Position numbers and translations under genes: made by a program
Notes under the pieces: generated by a model
What the model was told of the DNA's origin: nothing
The model's input: the letters and a program-made list of their open reading frames with translations, nothing else
Databases searched by the model: none
In this document: positions 12,267 to 39,171 of the stretch, in pieces
Position numbering within the stretch: position 1 is the stretch's first letter
How the letters are laid out: every line of letters starts with the position of its first letter
Assembly: GCF_024298765.1 (NCBI RefSeq)
Contig: NZ_CP101211.1
Reading direction: 5' to 3' (one strand)
Source: Escherichia coli
Lineage (GTDB): Bacteria; Pseudomonadota; Gammaproteobacteria; Enterobacterales; Enterobacteriaceae
DNA: 64,000 nt

Positions 12267-14279
12267 ATGAAATTAGATCTTAAATCATCACCGCGCCATA
12301 TTAAGCGTTTACAGAATATAGCAAAAGTCATTAGCGGCTTAGGCGATGTAAGAGTTGTAATAGACGACAATACCAAAGGACCGTATTTTGATCCTGTAAA
12401 TAAAGTTTGTGTTTTACCAAACGGCGATTATAGCGATGATGACTTTGTCAGTCTGATTGAAGGTTTTACCTGTCATGAAGCTGGTCATGGTCGCTATACC
12501 GACAGCGAGGTTTACAGTGACGCCTTTAATAGTGTTCTCAAGTCATCTGAAGGGTTTACACGCTTCGATGACGGAATGAATGCAGAGTTTGAGAGCCTCG
12601 CTGAGAAACGTAAAGCTTATAGCAGGGCAAAACGTCTTACCGGGCTTATAAATCTGTTCGATGATGTACAGATGGAAGAGAAGGTTGGTAACGATTATCC
12701 GGATGCAAAGCGGCGGCTTGCAGCCACTTACGCACTGATGGTTAAAGCCGGAAGGATGACTCCTGATATATCTTCTCGTCCGGAAAATCCTGTCCTATTT
12801 ATTGAGTGGTATCTGCTTAACTCATTGCGAGTAAAAGTCCTTCAGCAGGCAGGTCACAAAGAAACACTCGATCCGTTTTTTGACTATGCCCAAAAGATAC
12901 TTTCTCCAGTAATTTCTGATGTTGAGGAAATTTTTCATGATGCTCTTGGTTGTGAAAATACTCAGGGCTGTGAATCCCTTGCTCGTAAGACCCTGGCTCT
13001 TTTAGAGAGACTGCGGGATGAGGCAAGGGAACAACAGCAGCAGACAGAGCAGGAGGAGCAGGAGGCATATGATGAATCCGAGACCGAGACCGAGACCGAT
13101 ACCGAATCAGAAGATAAATCGCTTGAGTCGACTGATAGTCGTGAGGATGATTCTGAGGACGATAGTGAAGGTCAGGCAGATACTTCCGATAACTCTGATC
13201 TTGCTCAAGAGGGATGTTCTGAGCCTTCAGAACTTGCTGAAGATAACGAGGGAAATAATGAACCCACCGGTGGCAATCCCACAGGTGATAACATTATTGA
13301 AGACGATACTGATGCGATTAACCCTTCCGAGAGTGAATCAGATGAAGCCAGTTCGACTAACGTTGAAGATGAAAGTAACTTTTCATCGGCTCAATGGGAG
13401 ATACTGGCAGATTTGTTGGATGCCTTTCTTGGCAGTGATGAGGATAGCGAAGATTATCACGATGCTTTGGCTAAAGAGATTGAAGGTATTGCATCAAAAG
13501 TATCCGATGACGTGAAAGCCGAATTCGGTGCTTCTGAATGGGATATCCCTGATCTCCTTATCGATTTGAATGTTTACAATGAGGCTTTGTCTCTGAGTCA
13601 TTCAATCGGTAGCGACTTGTCTGTTTTACAGCAGGTTAAAATGCGTGGCCGAAACAAAACTCATGAGCGTGGAATTACCTTCGATGGAAATCGATTAATT
13701 CTGTCACCAATGGGAGTTCGTGATGTCTTCAGAGCTCAAAGCGAATCTAAAAATAGAGGGCATGTTGGCCTCGTATTAGTTCGTGATATTTCAGCGTCAA
13801 TGGCTAATGATGAAAGATATATTCATGCCATTAAGTCAGATCTTGCTTTATCGATGGCCGCTGAAAGTTTGTCAAAAATGCATGTCTCCAATATAGTCTT
13901 TCCCTTCAAGGAAAGTGAATTTGAGATTATCAAAACGTTTGATCAAAGCGTTGAGGAATCTCTATCGAAATTCACTCTTGGATGTAAGGGTTATTATACC
14001 CCTACGGGATCGGCTTTAATGGCAGCTGTTGATCTGTTACTTGACAGCCAATTCGATAGGAAAATAATTTTTCTTATAACTGATGGTTATCCGAATAAAT
14101 CGGAATTTACTATCGGCGAAGTTATGGAAAAGGCTAAATGTAATGGAATAGAAATCGTTGGTGTTGGTATTAAGACTGATGAAATAATTGGTTTTGAAAC
14201 GGACACTTTCGTAACAGTTGATGATACTTCTTTATTGTCTATTGAAGTCAGTAAGCTAGTTCATCAAATACTTTCTTAA
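12267..14279 (+). CDS. vWA-domain protein with N-terminal HExxH motif and acidic linker (CobT-like architecture)
   Basis: 670 aa; HEAGH motif near residue 70, long D/E/S/T-rich low-complexity linker, C-terminal vWA with MIDAS-like DISAS and downstream TDG. Confidence 0.6.
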   Translation: MKLDLKSSPRHIKRLQNIAKVISGLGDVRVVIDDNTKGPYFDPVNKVCVLPNGDYSDDDFVSLIEGFTCHEAGHGRYTDSEVYSDAFNSVLKSSEGFTRFDDGMNAEFESLAEKRKAYSRAKRLTGLINLFDDVQMEEKVGNDYPDAKRRLAATYALMVKAGRMTPDISSRPENPVLFIEWYLLNSLRVKVLQQAGHKETLDPFFDYAQKILSPVISDVEEIFHDALGCENTQGCESLARKTLALLERLRDEAREQQQQTEQEEQEAYDESETETETDTESEDKSLESTDSREDDSEDDSEGQADTSDNSDLAQEGCSEPSELAEDNEGNNEPTGGNPTGDNIIEDDTDAINPSESESDEASSTNVEDESNFSSAQWEILADLLDAFLGSDEDSEDYHDALAKEIEGIASKVSDDVKAEFGASEWDIPDLLIDLNVYNEALSLSHSIGSDLSVLQQVKMRGRNKTHERGITFDGNRLILSPMGVRDVFRAQSESKNRGHVGLVLVRDISASMANDERYIHAIKSDLALSMAAESLSKMHVSNIVFPFKESEFEIIKTFDQSVEESLSKFTLGCKGYYTPTGSALMAAVDLLLDSQFDRKIIFLITDGYPNKSEFTIGEVMEKAKCNGIEIVGVGIKTDEIIGFETDTFVTVDDTSLLSIEVSKLVHQILS

Positions 14280-20667: not shown

Positions 20668-21443
20668 TCCTTTTGCTTCAGTCCAAAAAAGTAACTTTGG
20701 TTGGCTGAAGACACTTGTCTATGACAATGTAAAATCTGTCGCTGGCATCTTCTTTTAGCTTAACCAAATTTTTATCTAACCCAGTGGGGAAGTCGCTTCC
20801 CTTCTGGGGCACTTCCTCTCAAATTCGAGGTAGTGTATATGACACATTCATCTGATGATAAAAACTATGTCCGAGCAGTTCTGAGTTATCTTGGCATAGA
20901 TTTTGATGAGGCGGATATAGTATTAAGTGTTTGCCATTGTCAAAGTGACGAGCTTTCTTTTACCTGTAATATCAAAGCTATTGAACTCAAGAATGCTGTT
21001 GATTTATATGTCGATAGTATCTCTGAGAATGAAATAGAAGCTTTAAACAGAGAATCTTTAAAATCGCGACTCTGTTACTTTCTTGAGGTGTTTGACGCAG
21101 TCTCTGGTCAGTACCTTGAAATTTCAGGAAAACACTTTGCAACTAGTCGTTTTGAATATGATGATGTTTGTAGTGAAGTTCTTAGCATGTCTAATGATGT
21201 TTCTCAGTCGAAAGGTTATGACCGGGATGAATATAACAGACTGATGCAGGTTGATGGTCAGGTTATGATTGCCCGTTTTGCTTTGCAACAGTTCTGGGAT
21301 ACTCATTTTATTGGACTAATAACATTTGTATCTGAGTCTATAACATCGAGCCTCTATAAAGCTTATGAAACTTTTAGTGATATTAGTTTGGCTTGCTATA
21401 AACTGAGTGAATATTCTTATTCACGCTCGGTAATGACTCCAAC

Positions 21444-21947
21444 TTATTGATAGTGTTTTATGTTCAGATAATGCCCGATGACTTTGTCATGCAGCTCCAC
21501 CGATTTTGAGAACGACAGCGACTTCCGTCCCAGCCGTGCCAGGTGCTGCCTCAGATTCAGGTTATGCCGCTCAATTCGCTGCGTATATCGCTTGCTGATT
21601 ACGTGCAGCTTTCCCTTCAGGCGGGATTCATACAGCGGCCAGCCATCCGTCATCCATATCACCACGTCAAAGGGTGACAGCAGGCTCATAAGACGCCCCA
21701 GCGTCGCCATAGTGCGTTCACCGAATACGTGCGCAACAACCGTCTTCCGGAGCCTGTCATACGCGTAAAACAGCCAGCGCTGGCGCGATTTAGCCCCGAC
21801 GTATCCCCACTGTTCGTCCATTTCCGCGCAGACGATGACGTCACTGCCCGGCTGTATGCGCGAGGTTACCGACTGCGGCCTGAGTTTTTTAAATGGCGGA
21901 AAATCGTGTTGAGGCCAACGCCCATAATGCGGGCGGTTGCCCGGCAT
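21444..21947 (-). CDS. insB: IS1 InsB (transposase made by frameshift fusion with InsA)
   Basis: 167-aa ORF matching IS1 InsB as recalled. Confidence 0.8.
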
Positions 21948-22141
21948 CCAACGCCATTCATGGCCATATCAATGATTTTCTGGTGCGTACCGGGTTGAGA
22001 AGCGGTGTAAGTGAACTGCAGTTGCCATGTTTTACGGCAGTGAGAGCAGAGATAGCGCTGATGTCCGGCGGTGCTTTTGCCGTTACGCACCACCCCGTCA
22101 GTAGCTGAACAGGAGGGACAGCTGATAGAAACAGAAGCCAC
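21866..22141 (-). CDS. insA: IS1 InsA
   Basis: 91-aa [46 protein letters not shown] matches IS1 InsA as recalled. Confidence 0.8.
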
Positions 22142-22611
22142 TGGAGCACCTCAAAAACACCATCATACACTAAATCAGTAAGTTGGCAGCATCACCTTCA
22201 CGCTCTATCAACAGTGAATTGACCCTTAATATTTCACTTAAAGAAAATGACTTCTGTGAGGACCTATCTGATTGCTATATGGAAGATGAGGCTTTACCTT
22301 CTGGTAGGGTAATTTCTCGACGCAACAATGACTCCATAATAAGTATTTATGAGAGCTATGCTGCGGCTTCTTATATTCCGATGATTGCATCTTTGGAAGT
22401 CGTTGATGAATACGGCGAAGTGGTTACTGACCTCTGCCATACCGTTTATGTTTCAGAGTTAACCGGTGGGCGGATTAAAATCCACGACCGTAATGACTTA
22501 GTATCTGAAGTTTTCGATAACCTAAGAAATTTAAATCTTGCAGTTGGAGATTCAGTTTCACAAGCTGCTTGATTCTTTCCCTGATTTTGATTTTTTCTCA
22601 CATACTCTTAT

Positions 22612-29119: not shown

Positions 29120-31709
<2,590 letters not shown>

Positions 31710-31714
31710 CTGAT

Positions 31715-32314
31715 ATTGAATATGAAATCAGTCAGGTGCAGCTCGGGCGACGTAAAACAACATACAGTGAGTGCATTGAAAGCCTGATCATTGATGAGAC
31801 CAGTTCCCGGGAATGGCTATATCATCCATTAATGCATGAACTTGAATCTGAACCTCTTCAGGAGTATCGGGGACGGGAGCCTTCAGAGGAAGGGCCTCTT
31901 CTTCAGCGCCTTGCTGACTGTAAGATGAAATTGCCTGATATCCTTCCGGGCAGTCATAACGCGCTAGTCAGGTTACAGCAGGATACGATTGTATGTCTGT
32001 GTCGGTTAACGGTTCGGGCTTATGACATCGCTCAGACCGATGAATTTCCTTTGTTCCTTCGCTATTTCAGGTTGCACTGCCTGGAAAACAGCGAACATGT
32101 CAGTTACGAAAGACTGATCTGCTGGCAGGAAATGATTTCAAAAACCCAGGAAGGCCAGTCCTTGACACAAAACGAACTTGAATATCTTCATGAGATTGTC
32201 CGCATCGCCTTTTACAATCACCGGCTTAACAATGTCAGTATTTCAGATGTTAAAAACCATGACACTGGAAAGAAGAGCGGCAGGGTAGAGTCACAAAACT
32301 ATTCACTTTTATAA
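31715..32314 (+). pseudogene. 3' part of the IS100-interrupted CoiA-like gene
   Basis: In-frame continuation (..DLPD|IEYEISQVQLGRR..) of the 29243 ORF after excising the IS. Confidence 0.5.
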
Positions 32315-32480
32315 ATAACTTGGGCTTTGCGCATTAAACCCTTGCCGCAGGCGGTGTACCGCATATCCGGCACAGACAGTCAGTTTTTTCTGGCAGCTTA
32401 AATTTGACACTGCTTAATATAGTGATTCATTAAACAGGTTCAGTATGCTGCCAGAACGTTTTAGTCGTAATGGGCGTCCG

Positions 32481-34034
32481 TTAGTTTTCAACTAACTGAA
32501 CGACGACCAGCCTGCCGCCTTCCTCCTTTGACAGAACAAACTGAGCGTTATTCGTCAGTTCAATTTTTTCCCCAATGGCAATCTGTCGTTTATCCGGTAA
32601 TGACATAAGCCCATTTATGCCTTCATTTACTAACCACCACTGATCGTTATGGAAAACAAAATACCCAACTCGTTTCCTTTGTGCATCGGTTGTGCGCTCA
32701 TTTGGCGCAATGAGGCGATTCACATGCCACGCATAGATTGACTGCCCGCTCCACACCATCAACCGGTGGTCGTCAGGACGATAACTGCCTTCCTTTCGGG
32801 ATGAATATAAATTTAGAACCGGTAATTTACCCTTGTATGGCGTACCGCAGTAGGGACAAACCGGCTTTGTCTTACCTGAGAAAACGTACCATTTCTGTTC
32901 ACACGCCTTGTTCTGGCAGGGCTGTATCAGATCGACTGTTTTAACCAGGGCACTTTCCCACTCATCGGCGGTCGGGCGTTTATTGGCATCGTGTAAGCCA
33001 TCAATAAAGGCGCGTTCAAACAAAGGCGTCAAATAAGGGCCCATGATGGTGTAAGGAATTTTCTCCGGGTCAGCCCAGGGCAGTGAAAAGGAGGATAGCT
33101 GACTGACTTTGACTGCATTGCTTTTGTCTGTCGGATGTTCAATGAAGAGTGCCTTCTCACCCATAGATAAGGTCTCATCACGTACTTCATCCGACATGTC
33201 ATGTATTTTTCCGCCACGTAGCGGATGACGGAAGAACAGATACATGTAGATAAGCACCGACAGCGCATGACGGTCAGTAGAAATGCTTGGCAATACGCGG
33301 TTCGGATCCTCTTTGGAAAGATGGCTGGTTTTCACCACTTCCGGAGCGATAAAATCCGGGGTGCCCACGACGTCGGGAGGATACTTTCCAGGGACAACCA
33401 GGCCGTCTACGTCAATGATGCAGGCATGTCCCATTTCTGGATCGATAAGCACGTTTTTATAGCTTAGATCGCTGTGACAGAGACCTGCCGCATGCATCCT
33501 TCTGACGGCTCTTGTTAGCAGCAGACAGACCTTGAGATAGGTAAGCGTATTGCCTCGTTCACGTGGGTCGAGAAATTTATTCTGGTTGCTGGCGCTGGCA
33601 AACCATTTGCCTTCCTTTTCACGGCCTTTTATGCCAAGAAAATCATCGTTTTTAGAGCCGTATTTAAAGAAAAAGTAGCTTTTGTAGGTTGGAACCACGA
33701 TGCCGATTTTATCCCCATGCTCAACAACGTGGGTCGGCCAGCAAAACAGGTCCTTCCAGTATTCACCTCCGGACTGGCCAAAAATGTTTTGCCTGTAGCG
33801 TCCGGTGATCATATCAATCCGATCCCGGGCCTGCTCGTTCTGCGGTTTATGATAAAAAGCGACGACGTATGATTTATCAGGCGAGAAGTAAACATCCTTC
33901 ATCGAGCCCGAACCAATTACCTCGTCAACATACTGGACTGTTTCGCCGTCCTTTGTTTTGCACGTAACAATATTTGCCATATTGATCACCGAAGAAGCGT
34001 ATCCCTTACCACAACACCGCAATAGTGCGGTCAT
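32481..34034 (-). CDS. Ser/Thr protein kinase with C-terminal Zn-ribbon (kinase of the ter-linked kinase/phosphatase/vWA triad)
   Basis: Gly-rich loop GSGSMKDVY, catalytic loop HSDLSYKNVLID, DVDG, APE-like FIAPE; C-terminal CQNKAC..CPYC. Confidence 0.7.
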   Translation of the reverse strand: MTALLRCCGKGYASSVINMANIVTCKTKDGETVQYVDEVIGSGSMKDVYFSPDKSYVVAFYHKPQNEQARDRIDMITGRYRQNIFGQSGGEYWKDLFCWPTHVVEHGDKIGIVVPTYKSYFFFKYGSKNDDFLGIKGREKEGKWFASASNQNKFLDPRERGNTLTYLKVCLLLTRAVRRMHAAGLCHSDLSYKNVLIDPEMGHACIIDVDGLVVPGKYPPDVVGTPDFIAPEVVKTSHLSKEDPNRVLPSISTDRHALSVLIYMYLFFRHPLRGGKIHDMSDEVRDETLSMGEKALFIEHPTDKSNAVKVSQLSSFSLPWADPEKIPYTIMGPYLTPLFERAFIDGLHDANKRPTADEWESALVKTVDLIQPCQNKACEQKWYVFSGKTKPVCPYCGTPYKGKLPVLNLYSSRKEGSYRPDDHRLMVWSGQSIYAWHVNRLIAPNERTTDAQRKRVGYFVFHNDQWWLVNEGINGLMSLPDKRQIAIGEKIELTNNAQFVLSKEEGGRLVVVQLVEN

Positions 34035-35646
34035 CGTGGTTCCCTGTGGAGAAAAAGTTAAGCCAGTCGCCTAACCTCTCAGGCGCAATACTGGCGTCTG
34101 TAAGGACAGGGATGAGCTCATCAAGGAGACGGGTCCATTTTTCGTCACTGCGAAGCCCGTTATCTGTCTCAAACAGAGGGTCTGATACGCCATCTGTCAT
34201 GAGGATCAAGTGAGATACATCATTCCATTTACCCACGCTGATGCGGCCGCTAAACGAGGGGTCTGCGATAATGCTCTGGTCAAGAAAGCGGGTTTGTCCT
34301 GCGTATTCTCCGCTATCGGGATTTCCCAGTATCCTGACTTTACCGGAAGGGCTGTATGCACCTATCGCACCATCACCAAGCCAGAATGCAGCCGCAAACA
34401 GCTCGTTATCAGTTCGTAGCGCTACAGTTGCCAGTAGGGTTGTTGAATAGGATTTCACAGGTTGTTCTGCACAAATGGCTTCGTTCTGGATACTGTTGAC
34501 CGCGAGCGTAGCTGCCTGTTTAAAATGATGAAGCATGGCGTTTATGGTTGCCTGCTGATCGCTCCCTTCCCACGCCGTGATGTGCTGCTTTAGATGGACG
34601 CCTTTCAAACCACTGAGCTGATTGAAAAGGTAATCGCCAGCCGTTTGGACTGCAATCCGGGAGCCTTCCCGGGAATTTACCGCACTACCGGCCCCGTCTG
34701 CGACCAGCATGACAGACCATCCTGTTTCCTGGCAGTGGTTGATATAGAAGTCGTCATCTCTGAAGCTCCCGGCATGCTCATGAGATCGTCCCCGGCGACT
34801 GGCGGCAGCAATACGTATGTCACCCCTGACCAGGCCAGCAGCGTCCAGATGGGACTTAGGGTAGGAAGCGTCTGCTGGTGGCTCTACCACCTTCCACAGG
34901 CTTCTCGGATCGGGATTGACTATAAAAAGCTGTTTTGTTTCGCATTCGTCGTGCGAAGCGCATGACCAGAGTACTGAAAGCTCTATATCGCCGCTTTCGG
35001 TGGGTGTACCTGTCAGCAACTTATGCTCTTTGTCAAAGGTCAGGCCAATGTTCCTGGGAAAGACAACGTCCCTGACAGTAGCCTGCTGGCCCTCATCCAG
35101 AACTATAGCAACCGGCGAAGAGAAACGTTCGCCTGCGCGGGCGTTGGGAATAACTATTTTAGCTCTCGGGGGAACGGCAGGTGGCACAGCTAATCCGGCC
35201 CGCTGCTGGCCTGTCGGTATCTGCCCGGGTTTTAATACCAGGGAAGACAGGTTTTCGTCTTCCCTCTGTGCTGGTTTATCAAATTCGTAATAAGGCATCA
35301 GCTTCCAGAACGGAGGATGAGGTTCATTTTCTGGCAGGGGTTGCAGTAATGGTGTATCGGTAGCGTCAATGCCCGGGTTATCAGCATCACTTACGACCGT
35401 TTGTTGCTGATCGGAAAGGCTGGATGCTGACGAGGGGGCGATCTCTGCGTCGTTATAACCTTCGCTAACCCGCGCAGATAAACCCTGTGCAAGGCTCTCA
35501 ATCCGCTCTTTAAGCCGCATAATCTCTTCAGTAAGGGAAGGGTCGTGCGATAGAAGAAAAAGCCGCTCACCTTCTACAGGGTGGCCCAGCTCAGACAGCA
35601 CTAAGCGGATAATCTTCTCTTCAAGTAAAACATTTTGCGACATCAA
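34006..35646 (-). CDS. PP2C-family Ser/Thr protein phosphatase with long N-terminal extension
   Basis: PP2C-like blocks RGRSHEHAGSFRDDD, MLVADGAGS, LMTDGVSD; start overlaps end of the upstream vWA gene. Confidence 0.65.
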   Translation of the reverse strand: MMSQNVLLEEKIIRLVLSELGHPVEGERLFLLSHDPSLTEEIMRLKERIESLAQGLSARVSEGYNDAEIAPSSASSLSDQQQTVVSDADNPGIDATDTPLLQPLPENEPHPPFWKLMPYYEFDKPAQREDENLSSLVLKPGQIPTGQQRAGLAVPPAVPPRAKIVIPNARAGERFSSPVAIVLDEGQQATVRDVVFPRNIGLTFDKEHKLLTGTPTESGDIELSVLWSCASHDECETKQLFIVNPDPRSLWKVVEPPADASYPKSHLDAAGLVRGDIRIAAASRRGRSHEHAGSFRDDDFYINHCQETGWSVMLVADGAGSAVNSREGSRIAVQTAGDYLFNQLSGLKGVHLKQHITAWEGSDQQATINAMLHHFKQAATLAVNSIQNEAICAEQPVKSYSTTLLATVALRTDNELFAAAFWLGDGAIGAYSPSGKVRILGNPDSGEYAGQTRFLDQSIIADPSFSGRISVGKWNDVSHLILMTDGVSDPLFETDNGLRSDEKWTRLLDELIPVLTDASIAPERLGDWLNFFSTGNHDDRTIAVLW

Positions 35647-36683
35647 CCTCTCCCTCTGTTTACGTCGAAGTTAGTGTTTCCGCCATCATTGCTGAATGAC
35701 AGACCTGTTTCACACCACGGGCAGATCACGTCATCCGGGCCGTCAATGCACAGCAATTTTCCGCATGAGCACAGGGCAAACGCACTGGCATTACCGCAGT
35801 GAGGGCAACCCGGTACGCCATGCAGTTCGCTGGTGTTTACCTGCAAACCGGTAGCGGTGGCATCTGACCATGCAAAATAGTCTTCATCGATGGGATAGCA
35901 TCCGGCAATATTAAAGCTGTTCAGGTTCAGGCTGAAATCGAGCCCGGAAATCCTTGCTGGTGGCCGTTCATACTTCATCAGATACGGACGACGGGTCTTG
36001 CTGCAACGGCCGGTAAGCGTAACGCAGTTTTCGTCGTACGCTTTTACTGGCTCGTCCTTGGCCAGCCGGACTATGTATTCAGTCTGGCTGAGCTCAGGTT
36101 GTTTGTCGTCTCCGACGCTGCGGCTGTGCGCCGTAACCGAGGCTGTGATCCATTTGATGAAGCGGGTAAAGTCCCCTTCCTGAGACTCGGTGAACAGCAT
36201 GACATTCTCTGTCAGTTGCCGCAGGGTATTCAGGTCCGCTGACGGCCCCAGGCCAACGGCAATGAGATTCACTTTACTCGCGTAGTGATCCTTCCAGCGC
36301 TTCACTTCTGCGGTTGTGTCGTCAGTCGGACGTCCGTCGGTAAGGAGATACACGACGGGTTTCCAGTCGCCTTTAGCCTCATGAGTGGTTTTTCTGACCT
36401 GGGTATCAATTTGTACGGTCAGCTCACGCAATGCGGCCCCAAGGCTCGTACCGCCGCCAACGGGAAGGCGGGGAGGGTAGAACGAGGCAATTTCGTGAAG
36501 AGGTACAATCGTACGGGCTACACCGGCAAATGCGATTACCGAAACCCAGGCTGTTTCAAGTGCGTGTGGATCCTTTCTTAAATCTCCGATGATCATTTGC
36601 AGACCATCAGTCATTTTTTTCAGGTTTTCACCAATCATGGACTCTGAACAGTCCAGGACAAAAAACACGGGAAGGCGTCTCAT
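35643..36683 (-). CDS. vWA-domain protein with C-terminal Zn-ribbon (TerY-like member of the triad)
   Basis: Starts MRRLPVFFVLDCSESM (MIDAS DxSxS) with RBS gaggaaaatt; later LLTDGRPTDD; C-terminal CPHCG..CSCG..CPWC; the 414-aa track ORF has a spurious upstream extension. Confidence 0.65.
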   Translation of the reverse strand: MRRLPVFFVLDCSESMIGENLKKMTDGLQMIIGDLRKDPHALETAWVSVIAFAGVARTIVPLHEIASFYPPRLPVGGGTSLGAALRELTVQIDTQVRKTTHEAKGDWKPVVYLLTDGRPTDDTTAEVKRWKDHYASKVNLIAVGLGPSADLNTLRQLTENVMLFTESQEGDFTRFIKWITASVTAHSRSVGDDKQPELSQTEYIVRLAKDEPVKAYDENCVTLTGRCSKTRRPYLMKYERPPARISGLDFSLNLNSFNIAGCYPIDEDYFAWSDATATGLQVNTSELHGVPGCPHCGNASAFALCSCGKLLCIDGPDDVICPWCETGLSFSNDGGNTNFDVNRGRG

Positions 36684-36768
36684 AATTTTCCTCGTACGGC
36701 TGGTACGGCCAGCAGAAAACGTTGCTGTACAGAAAGGTGCTGCCCGGAAAGCAGCACCTTTCTGTCTG

Positions 36769-37410
36769 TCAGAGCACCAGCTGGATTTCTGGTGGAGGAG
36801 GGGGAAGGGTATCAGTTCCGTTATTGATCCCCGCGCTTGTGCTGCCGGAAGACACGCTGGCCGATACCCATTTAAAGAAACCTGCAAACGCGGTTGAATC
36901 TAGCGTCTCCAGAGACACAACCTTATCGGTGAGCTGTTTTAAGTGCTCATGGCCTGCTTTAGGACCAACGGCGCAGGCAATGATGGATCCGAATCCCCGG
37001 CCGCGAATCGCTTTTACCGCTTCACCGTACGCCAGGGCATCAGAAGGGGTTCCATCAGTCATCAGGAATACCAGAGGACGCCAGTCTCCTTTTGTATCAC
37101 CATCTGAGCGACGTACATCCCGTTCAACACACTGCATCAGACATTCAAGGGCAGCACCGGTGAACGTCCCGCCTGCGCTTGGCACAACGATGTCAGAAAA
37201 CTGGAAGTCTTCCAGCGGCGTGAGAGGAATGAACTCACGCGCCTCATTGTCATAGGTGATAATGGAGATATGAACGCTTTCGAGGGCGTAGGGATCCTGG
37301 CGAAGAGCGCTAAGCATCGCCTGAATTCCAACGTTAACGGAATGGATGGACTCACCGCGCATCGAGCCGGATGTGTCGATAACAAGGTAAACAGGCAGGC
37401 GGCGCATCAC
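36769..37410 (-). CDS. terY: Tellurite resistance vWA protein TerY
   Basis: 213 aa; MMRRLPVYLVIDTSGSM .. FLMTDGTPSD vWA/MIDAS; immediately upstream of terX. Confidence 0.7.
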   Translation of the reverse strand: MMRRLPVYLVIDTSGSMRGESIHSVNVGIQAMLSALRQDPYALESVHISIITYDNEAREFIPLTPLEDFQFSDIVVPSAGGTFTGAALECLMQCVERDVRRSDGDTKGDWRPLVFLMTDGTPSDALAYGEAVKAIRGRGFGSIIACAVGPKAGHEHLKQLTDKVVSLETLDSTAFAGFFKWVSASVSSGSTSAGINNGTDTLPPPPPEIQLVL

Positions 37411-38048
37411 ATGTAATTCCTCAGGTGCGAGACAAACGAATCTGATTCTGAAGGCTCACCAATTGCCCTGAGTTTCCAGCCTGTAGCCTCGCGTATCAGC
37501 TCGGCAAAAACCATGGAGCGCTGGCTGGCGAAGGCGGGTCCGCCAGAAAGATCGAATCGTGCCATTTCAATATTACGGGCATCTACTGCCCGGATGAAGG
37601 CATTCTGAACTTTACCAAAGTGCTGCTGGAGCTTTTCACCATTGTAGATCTGAACGATGAACACAATTTTCTCGTACTGAGCGTCAAGGGAATTCAGGCG
37701 CACAATAATTTGCTCATCGTCACCATCACCGGCTCCGGTTCGGTTATCGCCCGTCAGCCAGATATTTCCTGACTTATGGCGAAGGCTGTTGAAAAAGATG
37801 ATATCGCCATTCACAAGCGTTGGTTTACCATTTTCCACATTGCCGAGATCGGTCACCTTTCCGGCTGAATTACACAGGAAAGCGATCACATCAAGGTCGT
37901 ATTCTTCTTCTTTTTTACCAAAGATCCCGCCGAGGAAACCTTTCTTTTCCTCATTAATATCCCAACCCAGGCCGATAGTAACGGACGAGAGATCGTATTC
38001 ATTTTTTTTCAGGCTTACGCCCTGGCCTTTGCTCAGACTGACAGACAT
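37407..38048 (-). CDS. terX: TerD-family protein TerX
   Basis: 213 aa; [21 protein letters not shown] and GDNRTGAGDGDDE hallmark blocks of the TerD/TerZ/TerE family. Confidence 0.7.
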   Translation of the reverse strand: MSVSLSKGQGVSLKKNEYDLSSVTIGLGWDINEEKKGFLGGIFGKKEEEYDLDVIAFLCNSAGKVTDLGNVENGKPTLVNGDIIFFNSLRHKSGNIWLTGDNRTGAGDGDDEQIIVRLNSLDAQYEKIVFIVQIYNGEKLQQHFGKVQNAFIRAVDARNIEMARFDLSGGPAFASQRSMVFAELIREATGWKLRAIGEPSESDSFVSHLRNYM

Positions 38049-38070: not shown

Positions 38071-38709
38071 TTATAAGACCACGTTTACTTCTGGCGGCGG
38101 CGGTGGCAGGTCTTCAAGACCGATCACTTCTTTTTTGCTGGACTCCACTTTCTGACTGCCTACCGAAATGCTCGCACTGACCCATTTAAAGAAAGCTTTA
38201 ATCGTCGAACTGTCAGCTGTATCGAGCTGAACCACGATTTCAGTGATTTCTTTGAGGACGCTGGTATCGGCATCATGCCCGGCTGCACATGCCACAACAA
38301 CGCCGGTTCTGGCCGCTTTAAAGTCATTCAGGCCTTTACGCCAGTCATCATTCGGACTTCCATCCGTCATCAGGAATACAAGGGGACGCCAGTCACCTTT
38401 AGTGTCAGCCGTCGTTTTCTGTACTTCTTTGGCAATGGAGCTGGCCGTGAGGGAAAGCGCTTCGCCAAGAGAGGTGGTGCCGCTGGCTGTTAGTGCTGGC
38501 ATCTGGAAACTCAGGAGGTCTGTCAGGGGGACTGCCTGTCGGGCTGAAGAATCAAAGGTGATCACTGACACGTAAGCCGTTTCGAGTGCATACGGATCCT
38601 GTTTCAGCGTGGTAAGCAGCGTCTGAACGCCATTCTTAACCGCTTCGATAGGCTCTCCGTGCATAGAGCCGGACGTGTCGAGTAGCAGATATACGGGTAA
38701 GCGTCTCAA
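38071..38709 (-). CDS. terY: Tellurite resistance vWA protein TerY (second copy)
   Basis: vWA with RRLPVYLLLDTSGSM .. FLMTDGSPND; probable TTG start after RBS aaggaa giving ~212 aa (track ORF extends to 38790). Confidence 0.6.
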   Translation of the reverse strand: MRRLPVYLLLDTSGSMHGEPIEAVKNGVQTLLTTLKQDPYALETAYVSVITFDSSARQAVPLTDLLSFQMPALTASGTTSLGEALSLTASSIAKEVQKTTADTKGDWRPLVFLMTDGSPNDDWRKGLNDFKAARTGVVVACAAGHDADTSVLKEITEIVVQLDTADSSTIKAFFKWVSASISVGSQKVESSKKEVIGLEDLPPPPPEVNVVL

Positions 38710-39171
38710 ATGTAATTCCTTCTTAAGAGATCGGAAGAGGAGAGTAGTTTCAGGAAGAGGCCAGAGTTTGTAGATTTGATAAAACGGCACGACATCTGTC
38801 GGGTGGAGATTAAATACTCAGAAGCGGCATTAAAGAAATAAGTTAACCACCATTGAATTACCGACATGTGAATGGCCTCTTATCAGAGAAAAAAATTCAG
38901 ACCGTACTGGAATATAAATTTCTGAAAAAAACTCCGGCAAAAATAAACTTTCTTATGTATGAAAATCATCATACATCACAGATCTGCATGAATGGAGTGT
39001 AAATCGCCCAAAGATTGATGTGTAGCACAAGAGGATGTCAAGACACCAGGTTTTGTAGGCAGAAAGGCGCTGCTGACATTGCGGGAGGAGAATAGATCAA
39101 AACTCCGTCACGCAGATACAGAGGTGAAATATGACAAAACCGGGGTTTTCACCCCGGTCTGAGATTTAGCG

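Follow-up and report, generated by a model that had tools for sequence, protein, structure and literature searches.

Architecture and genomic setting of a ter-linked protein kinase, PP2C phosphatase and vWA protein, a putative TerY-P triad of the IncHI2 ter island

Why does a tellurite-resistance (ter) island carry, side by side, a Ser/Thr protein kinase, a PP2C-type phosphatase and a vWA protein? We addressed this question for a locus at positions 32481–36683 of a 64,000-nucleotide (nt) stretch of Escherichia coli DNA (RefSeq contig NZ_CP101211.1), the whole of which is called the window below. IncHI2 plasmids are major carriers of mcr-1, extended-spectrum β-lactamase genes and genes for metal resistance. 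What their ter island does physiologically has been a matter of debate for some 30 years, and the three genes form the only obvious signalling module in it.

Sequence comparison supports the assignment of the locus to the TerY-P triad, of which it is in effect the IncHI2 archetype. That triad (Anantharaman et al. 2012, via the citing papers PMC11090510 and PMC4978471) comprises a TerY-like vWA protein, a PP2C phosphatase and a Ser/Thr kinase with a zinc ribbon. A sequence-only reading of the window had already matched the genes to a predicted ter-linked triad, and their domain content, order and ter linkage agree with it. The triad is already known, having been defined in 2012; all three genes are annotated in RefSeq, and many plasmids carry an identical region. 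The predicted FHA fold, relocated lysine and Ig-like domain described below are useful new descriptors, not a new kind of system.

Architecture of the three proteins

As the sequence-only reading had it, the three genes are co-directional. All are intact minus-strand open reading frames (ORFs) free of frameshifts, and are made up as follows:

35643–36683, minus strand: vWA+TerY_C protein (terY3-type), 346 aa, RefSeq WP_001253653.1
about 36204–36668, minus strand: its vWA domain
about 35646–36035, minus strand: its Cys-rich TerY_C domain
34006–35643, minus strand: PP2C-family Ser/Thr phosphatase, 545 aa
35479–35643, minus strand: its N-terminal segment of about 55 aa
about 34909–35166, minus strand: its Ig-like domain
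34009–34794, minus strand: its PP2C_2 domain
32481–33980, minus strand: Ser/Thr protein kinase, 499 aa
32946–33980, minus strand: its kinase domain
33897–33899, minus strand: codon of kinase residue K28
33858–33860, minus strand: codon of kinase residue A41
32838–32927, minus strand: its Cys4 zinc ribbon
32487–32828, minus strand: its predicted FHA-fold domain

Domain searches (Pfam, and AlphaFold2 models compared by Foldseek) confirmed the folds proposed earlier, and the catalytic residues are retained. The kinase had been described as eukaryotic-like, with the motifs HSDLSYKNVLID and DVDG. Both are present, Pfam reports Pkinase at residues 151–269, in the C-lobe (E = 9.3e-10), and the full-length AlphaFold2 model, built with 59 homologues, has a kinase fold (predicted local distance difference test score, pLDDT, 95.9; predicted template modelling score, pTM, 0.94). 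The best PDB matches of this model in Foldseek were CaMKII, ASK1 and NIK (E about 1e-10).

In the family alignment (A1; 59 sequences, 31–86% identity), H169-S-D171-L-S-x-x-N176, D190-x-D192, A212-P213-E214, D236 and R335 are conserved. The Hanks-type set of HxDxxxxN, the Asp at the DFG position, APE and the Arg of subdomain XI is thereby present, its residues being kept in 47–59 of the 59 sequences, and the protein is predicted to be catalytically active. It has 4431 homologues at E<=1e-5, and its identity of 65–86% across Gamma- and Betaproteobacteria points to strong purifying selection.

The canonical β3 lysine (VAIK) of Hanks-type kinases is absent, position 41 of the β3 strand V-V-A41-F-Y being alanine. 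A lysine is found in the glycine loop, G23-S-G25-S-M-K28-D-V-Y. In the model, K28 lies at the start of strand β2 and A41 in the middle of β3. Among 243 tabulated homologues, 208 combine Lys28 with a residue other than Lys at position 41, 14 have Gly or Ala at 28 together with Lys41, and none has Lys at both; the Lys28 class is inflated by 120 close homologues, and the pattern holds among representatives at 50% identity. The commoner class carries Ala, Cys, Gly or Gln at the β3 position, the minority GxGxxG and VVK.

The same arrangement is seen in WNK1, which has GRGSFKTVY followed by VAWCEL, that is, a Lys at the third-glycine position of GxGxxG and a residue other than Lys at β3. By motif position, secondary structure and covariation, K28 appears to be the catalytic lysine, shifted to the glycine loop in the manner of WNK kinases. 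A phmmer search of the N-lobe against the PDB gave no match, so the comparison is limited to these three features. No description of a glycine-loop lysine arrangement in bacteria was found in a literature search.

In several members of the family the catalytic loop is degenerate; these are probably pseudokinases. On a metagenomic contig (L005, 8518–11452; also on L006), the triad kinase is directly followed by a paralogue with the degenerate loop LYDLSYRS and with neither a glycine-loop nor a β3 lysine, a probable pseudokinase partner. Two database names of the kinase are misleading. The RefSeq name "helix-hairpin-helix domain-containing protein" was rejected, as Pfam finds no HhH domain in the protein, and so was the PLSDB name "lipopolysaccharide kinase InaA family", as the Kdo match is confined to 37 residues of the catalytic loop.

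The C-terminal Cys4 ribbon noticed earlier is present, but it does not make up the whole tail. Its cysteines (C355, C360, C375 and C378) are kept in 55–58 of the 59 homologues, and the ribbon profile matched the COX5B and eS31 zinc ribbons among PDB sequences (E 0.003–0.03). Behind it lies a domain of about 115 aa (residues 385–498). When the tail (residues 346–499) was modelled alone (pLDDT 95.7), this domain was all-β, with the eleven-stranded β-sandwich of an FHA fold in the model, and its top 50 PDB matches in Foldseek were all FHA domains (E from 2.4e-3). The profile of the tail found zinc ribbons but no FHA domain among PDB sequences; the assignment, predicted from the model, is thus purely structural. 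A literature search, with the original 2012 description outside its reach, found no link between TerY-P kinases and FHA domains.

In the phosphatase, Pfam places PP2C_2 at residues 284–529 (E = 1.8e-46). The N-terminal extension reported earlier is real, but it measures about 280 aa rather than about 250. D296/D297, D316-G-A-G-S, D424-G, D484-G and D537-D538 are invariant among 31 homologues (32–85% identity), and the two-metal acidic residues of PPM/PP2C enzymes (D296/D297, D316-G, D484-G and D537-D538) are all present. A phmmer search of the catalytic domain against the PDB returned only 5d2u, a cyanobacterial PP2C, as a weak match in the DGxG region (E 0.29).

The extension begins with the conserved segment of about 55 residues, followed by a linker that is acidic, rich in Pro and variable in length, then the motif LKPGQIP and finally the Ig-like domain (residues about 160–245). 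Within this domain, residues 167–236 gave a match to the cadherin-like repeats of SraP (4m03, E = 3.9e-5), and Pfam He_PIG was recognised in homologues, at best with 1.1e-7. Not every PP2C of this kind has the extension: the one on another metagenomic contig (L009) has 354 residues and lacks it. Compared with the window proteins, an enterobacterial PP2C cluster (P0368) is 47% identical and a Klebsiella kinase cluster (P0002) 86%. Judged by these clusters, the PP2C diverges far faster than the kinase within one operon, and most of the change falls in the linker.

The third protein had been described as a vWA protein with a Cys-rich end, and this holds in full: Pfam assigns VWA (E = 3.2e-13) and TerY_C (E = 4.5e-53) to its 346 residues. 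The metal ion-dependent adhesion site (MIDAS) is complete as DxSxS...T...D, with D11-C-S13-E-S15, T79 and D116 invariant in five proteins (41–59% identity). Besides C227, seven invariant cysteines are found in the last 55 residues (C293, C296, C305, C307, C312, C321 and C324). This seven-Cys C-terminal module probably binds zinc.

Packing, gene order and distribution

The sequence-only reading had described the three genes as translationally coupled; they overlap at the first junction and not at the second. The last base of the vWA stop is also the first of the PP2C start (TGATG), with GGGAGAGG just before, and GAGGA lies 5 nt upstream of the ATG of the vWA/TerY_C gene. The kinase, however, starts at the MANIV methionine (33980) in RefSeq and in 12 of 12 full-length homologues (65–86% identity), 25 nt behind the PP2C stop, with a GGTGATC Shine-Dalgarno sequence 3 nt before the start. 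A longer kinase ORF, starting at 34034 and overlapping the PP2C gene by 29 nt, was rejected on the same evidence. Thus, genes overlap only at the vWA/PP2C junction, and the operon is still tightly packed.

To look at gene order elsewhere, we used six exact-protein look-ups of distant kinase homologues, which returned seven contigs. Five distant loci had the order vWA(_TerY_C), PP2C, kinase, with spacers of 3–69 nt; together with the 1-nt overlap and 25-nt spacer in the window, these support operon-like packing. TerD genes adjoin the triad in four of the five contexts, which are independent; two of these also have phosphoribosyltransferase (PRTase), StiP and C-C-lyase genes, and one of the two has TerB and TerC as well. 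The first locus is a 7.8-kb metagenome contig, too short for TerD linkage to be seen, and its vWA protein has no recorded TerY_C match. The second (metagenomic, L005/L006) contains TerD, three vWA genes, AIM24 and a PIF1-type helicase. The third, from Ignatzschineria, has TerD, vWA, PRTase, StiP, C-C lyase and terZABCDE-type genes, and the fourth, from Thiorhodococcus, is a TerD-vWA-TerD-vWA-vWA_TerYC-PP2C-kinase string. The fifth (metagenome, L009) carries vWA-TerF, TerD, AIM24 and ATP-grasp/PRTase/StiP/lyase genes. The surroundings of one further kinase homologue are unrelated: a second kinase lies nearby, and both vWA and PP2C are lacking. On L005, AIM24 and the PIF1-type helicase are positioned between the vWA genes.

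Within E. coli, the triad is an accessory part of the island. The terZABCD core was found in 1013 of 5426 genomes, at 697 chromosomal and 348 plasmid places, and the triad in 337 of the 1013 ter-bearing genomes. Of 5426 complete E. coli genomes, 337 carry the triad region (32300–37000, 4.7 kb), which lies on plasmids in 295 places and on chromosomes in 56. By these counts the triad accompanies most plasmid-borne ter islands and few chromosomal ones. In the one O157:H7 genome looked at, the ter island ends at terW and runs into copies of the insertion sequence (IS) IS66, without terY, terX or the triad.

The same 4.7 kb are 100% identical to pAPEC-O1-R (NC_009838) and to many IncHI2 plasmids, and 731 plasmid records, chiefly conjugative and from Escherichia, Enterobacter and Salmonella, match at 99% identity or more. 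In an E. coli plasmid (CP060110.1), the match to the triad region is split in two and an annotated IS66 element lies within it, which may be a natural disruption of the region.

Upstream of the triad, the ORFs and RefSeq products give the following neighbours:

38071–38709, minus strand: terY1-type vWA gene
37407–38048, minus strand: terX-type TerD-family gene
36769–37410, minus strand: terY2-type vWA gene
36729–36765, minus strand: perfect 17-bp hairpin in the spacer that separates the terY2-type gene from the triad, with no T-run after it

The terY1-, terX- and terY2-type genes and the triad probably belong to one operon, and their gene string recurs in Thiorhodococcus. Its boundaries are only suggested, because the promoter-like site (38911–38940, minus strand) and the terminator-like site (32322–32341, minus strand) are weak consensus matches, no commoner than in shuffled sequence. 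The spacer with the hairpin (85–88 nt) folds at -39.9 kcal/mol (z=-5.4), and none of 200 shuffled sequences was as stable. The hairpin may be specific to the enterobacterial island, since the corresponding spacers are shorter in Ignatzschineria (10 nt) and Thiorhodococcus (62 nt).

The annotated record has a classic IncHI2 ter island, with terZABCDE(F) on one strand and, on the other, ATP-grasp, PRTase, StiP and HpcH genes, a DUF4236 gene, terW, vWA, TerD, vWA and the triad. In the plasmid literature, the vWA gene of the triad is named terY3 or terY-C. Positions 13564–52999 are collinear with pAPEC-O1-R (36.7 kb compared) except for two insertions. The first measures 768 bp (21429–22196) and contains a 167-aa minus-strand ORF (21444–21947); these sizes would fit an IS1 element. 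The second is an IS21-family element of 1954 bp (29756–31709; istA 29842–30864, istB 30861–31643), with a 5-bp overlap in the pAPEC-O1-R alignment that is consistent with a target duplication. It interrupts the hypothetical gene WP_001232449.1, the 3′ part of which is the ORF at 31682–32314. This gene is convergent with the kinase gene, the two stops lying about 170 bp apart, and the insertion is about 770 bp from the kinase stop.

A possible phospho-switch and its alternatives

We consider it reasonably probable that the triad, placed at the distal end of the terY1-terX-terY2 string, works as a phospho-switch; a metal-sensing phospho-switch is also the published prediction for TerY-P triads (PMC11090510). 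We infer its enzymatic activity, signal, substrates and output as follows. The vWA/TerY_C protein, with its MIDAS and seven-Cys module, would be a metal-loaded adaptor or sensor that engages a partner or ligand and controls the cytoplasmic kinase. The kinase would phosphorylate itself and its partners, the likeliest of which are the co-encoded vWA and TerD-family proteins, using its zinc ribbon and FHA-fold tail as docking modules. The PP2C, with the Ig-like domain for interactions, would reset the switch.

The output would tune the stress and phage-exclusion machinery linked to ter, and not tellurite resistance itself. In KL53, the subclone pJS4, with terW, terZABCDE and a truncated terF, gave a tellurite minimum inhibitory concentration of 5 mM, the same as the wild type with terY3Y2XY1W (PMC11003894). 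The triad is therefore dispensable for tellurite resistance.

Several observations weigh against parts of this scheme. By motif order, the FHA-fold tail appears to lack the conserved phosphothreonine-binding Arg, Ser and Asn: R406, the candidate for the Arg, is kept by 24 of the 59 sequences, Y, F or H stands where Ser would be expected, and the residues at the NG position vary. Phospho-dependent docking by the tail is thus uncertain. The residues that are kept are H419 and N452 (55/59 each), W418 (50/59) and R490 (47/59), and binding may possibly be phospho-independent. In R478, phage inhibition and the colicin phenotype have been traced to terZ, terA, terC and terD (PMC12054061). Additionally, the Thiorhodococcus triad has only TerD and vWA genes beside it, with no terZABC within 10 kb, and TerY-P triads are also found with McrBC-type systems (PMC11090510); the partner of the triad therefore need not be the Ter membrane complex. 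The sequence-only reading had held that role and substrates were not experimentally established. This stands for the ter-linked triad, for which our literature search found neither an experimental study nor a substrate, but a distant analogue has been shown to act against phages (PMC11090510, PMC7699616).

That analogue underlies the alternative that survives best, though we regard it as no better than a tentative possibility: an autonomous anti-phage system of the abortive-infection type, with ter linkage reflecting the clustering of defence islands. The vWA protein would sense a phage component, the kinase would broadly phosphorylate host or phage proteins, and the PP2C would silence it in uninfected cells. 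The same three domain types protect against T7-like phages, triads with zinc-ribbon kinases lie inside CoCoNuT/McrBC systems (PMC11090510), IncHI2 ter clusters inhibit phages (PMC12054061), and the triad behaves as a movable accessory module. Kinase/phosphatase defences resembling toxin/antitoxin pairs also exist, such as KKP of Pf prophages (PMC11341870). Set against this, neither PADLOC nor BLASTP detected a sequence relationship to the validated system, the kinase tail has a zinc ribbon and predicted FHA fold in place of an OB fold, and phage inhibition in R478 maps to other ter genes. The TerD adjacency in four of five distant contexts argues for a functional link over mere co-location.

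An addiction module, in which plasmid loss would leave a longer-lived kinase unopposed by the PP2C and the plasmid would thereby be stabilised, strikes us as improbable. The genes are tightly coupled and lie on a large conjugative plasmid, phosphorylation-based toxin/antitoxin pairs have a precedent (PMC11341870, 10.1101/2022.09.05.506569), and the PP2C evolves much faster than the kinase, as the two clusters indicate. This explanation nevertheless gives no role to the vWA/TerY_C protein, which is equally conserved; the triad is chromosomal in many bacteria, including the 56 E. coli places; and the IS66 insertion in CP060110.1 suggests that its loss is tolerated. That the genes are decaying remnants without function is very hard to credit: most chromosomal ter islands lack them and tellurite resistance does not require them, but their reading frames are intact, all catalytic and metal-binding residues are retained, the AlphaFold2 models are very confident, and the conservation seen across thousands of homologues contradicts decay.

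The phospho-switch reading can be extended, rather speculatively and with low confidence, to a kinase that is both WNK-like, its glycine-loop Lys possibly making it responsive to anions or metals, and Rad53/Chk2-like. Such a kinase, the TerY_C protein and the Ig-PP2C would together make up a switch that senses ions or infection and explains part of the phage, colicin and stress phenotypes of IncHI2 plasmids. The phosphorylation targets would show which of metals, oxidative stress and phage the island responds to. Experimental handles are offered by K28 and D171 of the kinase, D316 and D484 of the phosphatase, D11/S13/S15 of the MIDAS and residues 385–498 of the tail.

Comparison with known systems

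The PpkA/PppA/Fha1 proteins of the H1 type VI secretion system of Pseudomonas aeruginosa form a threonine-phosphorylation pathway, an experimentally supported, reversible post-translational switch. A Hanks-type kinase, PP2C, FHA and vWA domains are found both there and in the triad. In the secretion system the vWA domain is periplasmic and within the kinase, while the FHA domain is separate and has the canonical phosphothreonine residues. In the triad, by contrast, the vWA domain belongs to a separate cytoplasmic protein, the predicted FHA fold is fused to the kinase and has a pocket that appears degenerate by motif order, and there is no linkage to a secretion system.

Rad53/Chk2-type kinases, like the triad kinase, combine FHA and kinase domains in one chain. 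In the triad kinase the predicted FHA fold is C-terminal, with the zinc ribbon in between. WNK kinases share with it the glycine-loop Lys and the β3 strand without Lys. In neither comparison was a specific sequence relationship found.

Stand-alone protection against T7-like phages has been shown for a TerY-P-like module with an OB-fold kinase (Gao 2020 per PMC11090510 and PMC7699616). A homologue of this module that served in a later study was located with its first 399 nt, taken from the supplement of 10.1101/2022.08.27.505566. In E. coli G3/10 (L002, 6200–9459), its vWA protein has 277 aa, its PP2C 239 aa and its kinase 561 aa, and it adjoins a type I restriction-modification system. Both this module and our locus have three genes in the same order, coding for vWA, PP2C and Ser/Thr kinase proteins, and the homologue lies in a defence island. 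The Gao-type vWA protein differs in having no TerY_C and its PP2C in having no N-terminal extension, both proteins are shorter, and there is no linkage to ter. Its kinase ends in an OB fold (PMC11090510), whereas the tail of the window kinase is a zinc ribbon and a predicted FHA fold, with no OB fold detected.

As a positive control, the G3/10 proteins matched the PADLOC models TerY (PDLC02224, 3.5e-173), PP2C (PDLC02222, 5.6e-108) and STK_OB (PDLC02223, 9e-265). The window triad matched none of these three models even at E<=10, and pairwise BLASTP against the G3/10 proteins was non-significant. NCBIfam gave only sub-threshold superfamily matches for the triad and no TerY-P family for the G3/10 control, so it provides no test of membership, and PADLOC is the only search with a valid positive control for membership in the anti-phage system. 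As there is no detectable sequence similarity to the Gao-type system, the result with T7-like phages is not simply transferable to the ter-linked triad.

The ter-linked TerY-P triad itself is a different matter. The predicted FHA fold, the glycine-loop lysine and the Ig-like domain have no mention in PMC11090510 and PMC4978471, the two papers that stood in for the 2012 original in this comparison. In all features used to judge membership, namely the vWA protein with TerY_C, the PP2C, the zinc-ribbon kinase, the gene order and the linkage to TerD and ter genes, the locus and the described triad are alike, with no essential difference between them.

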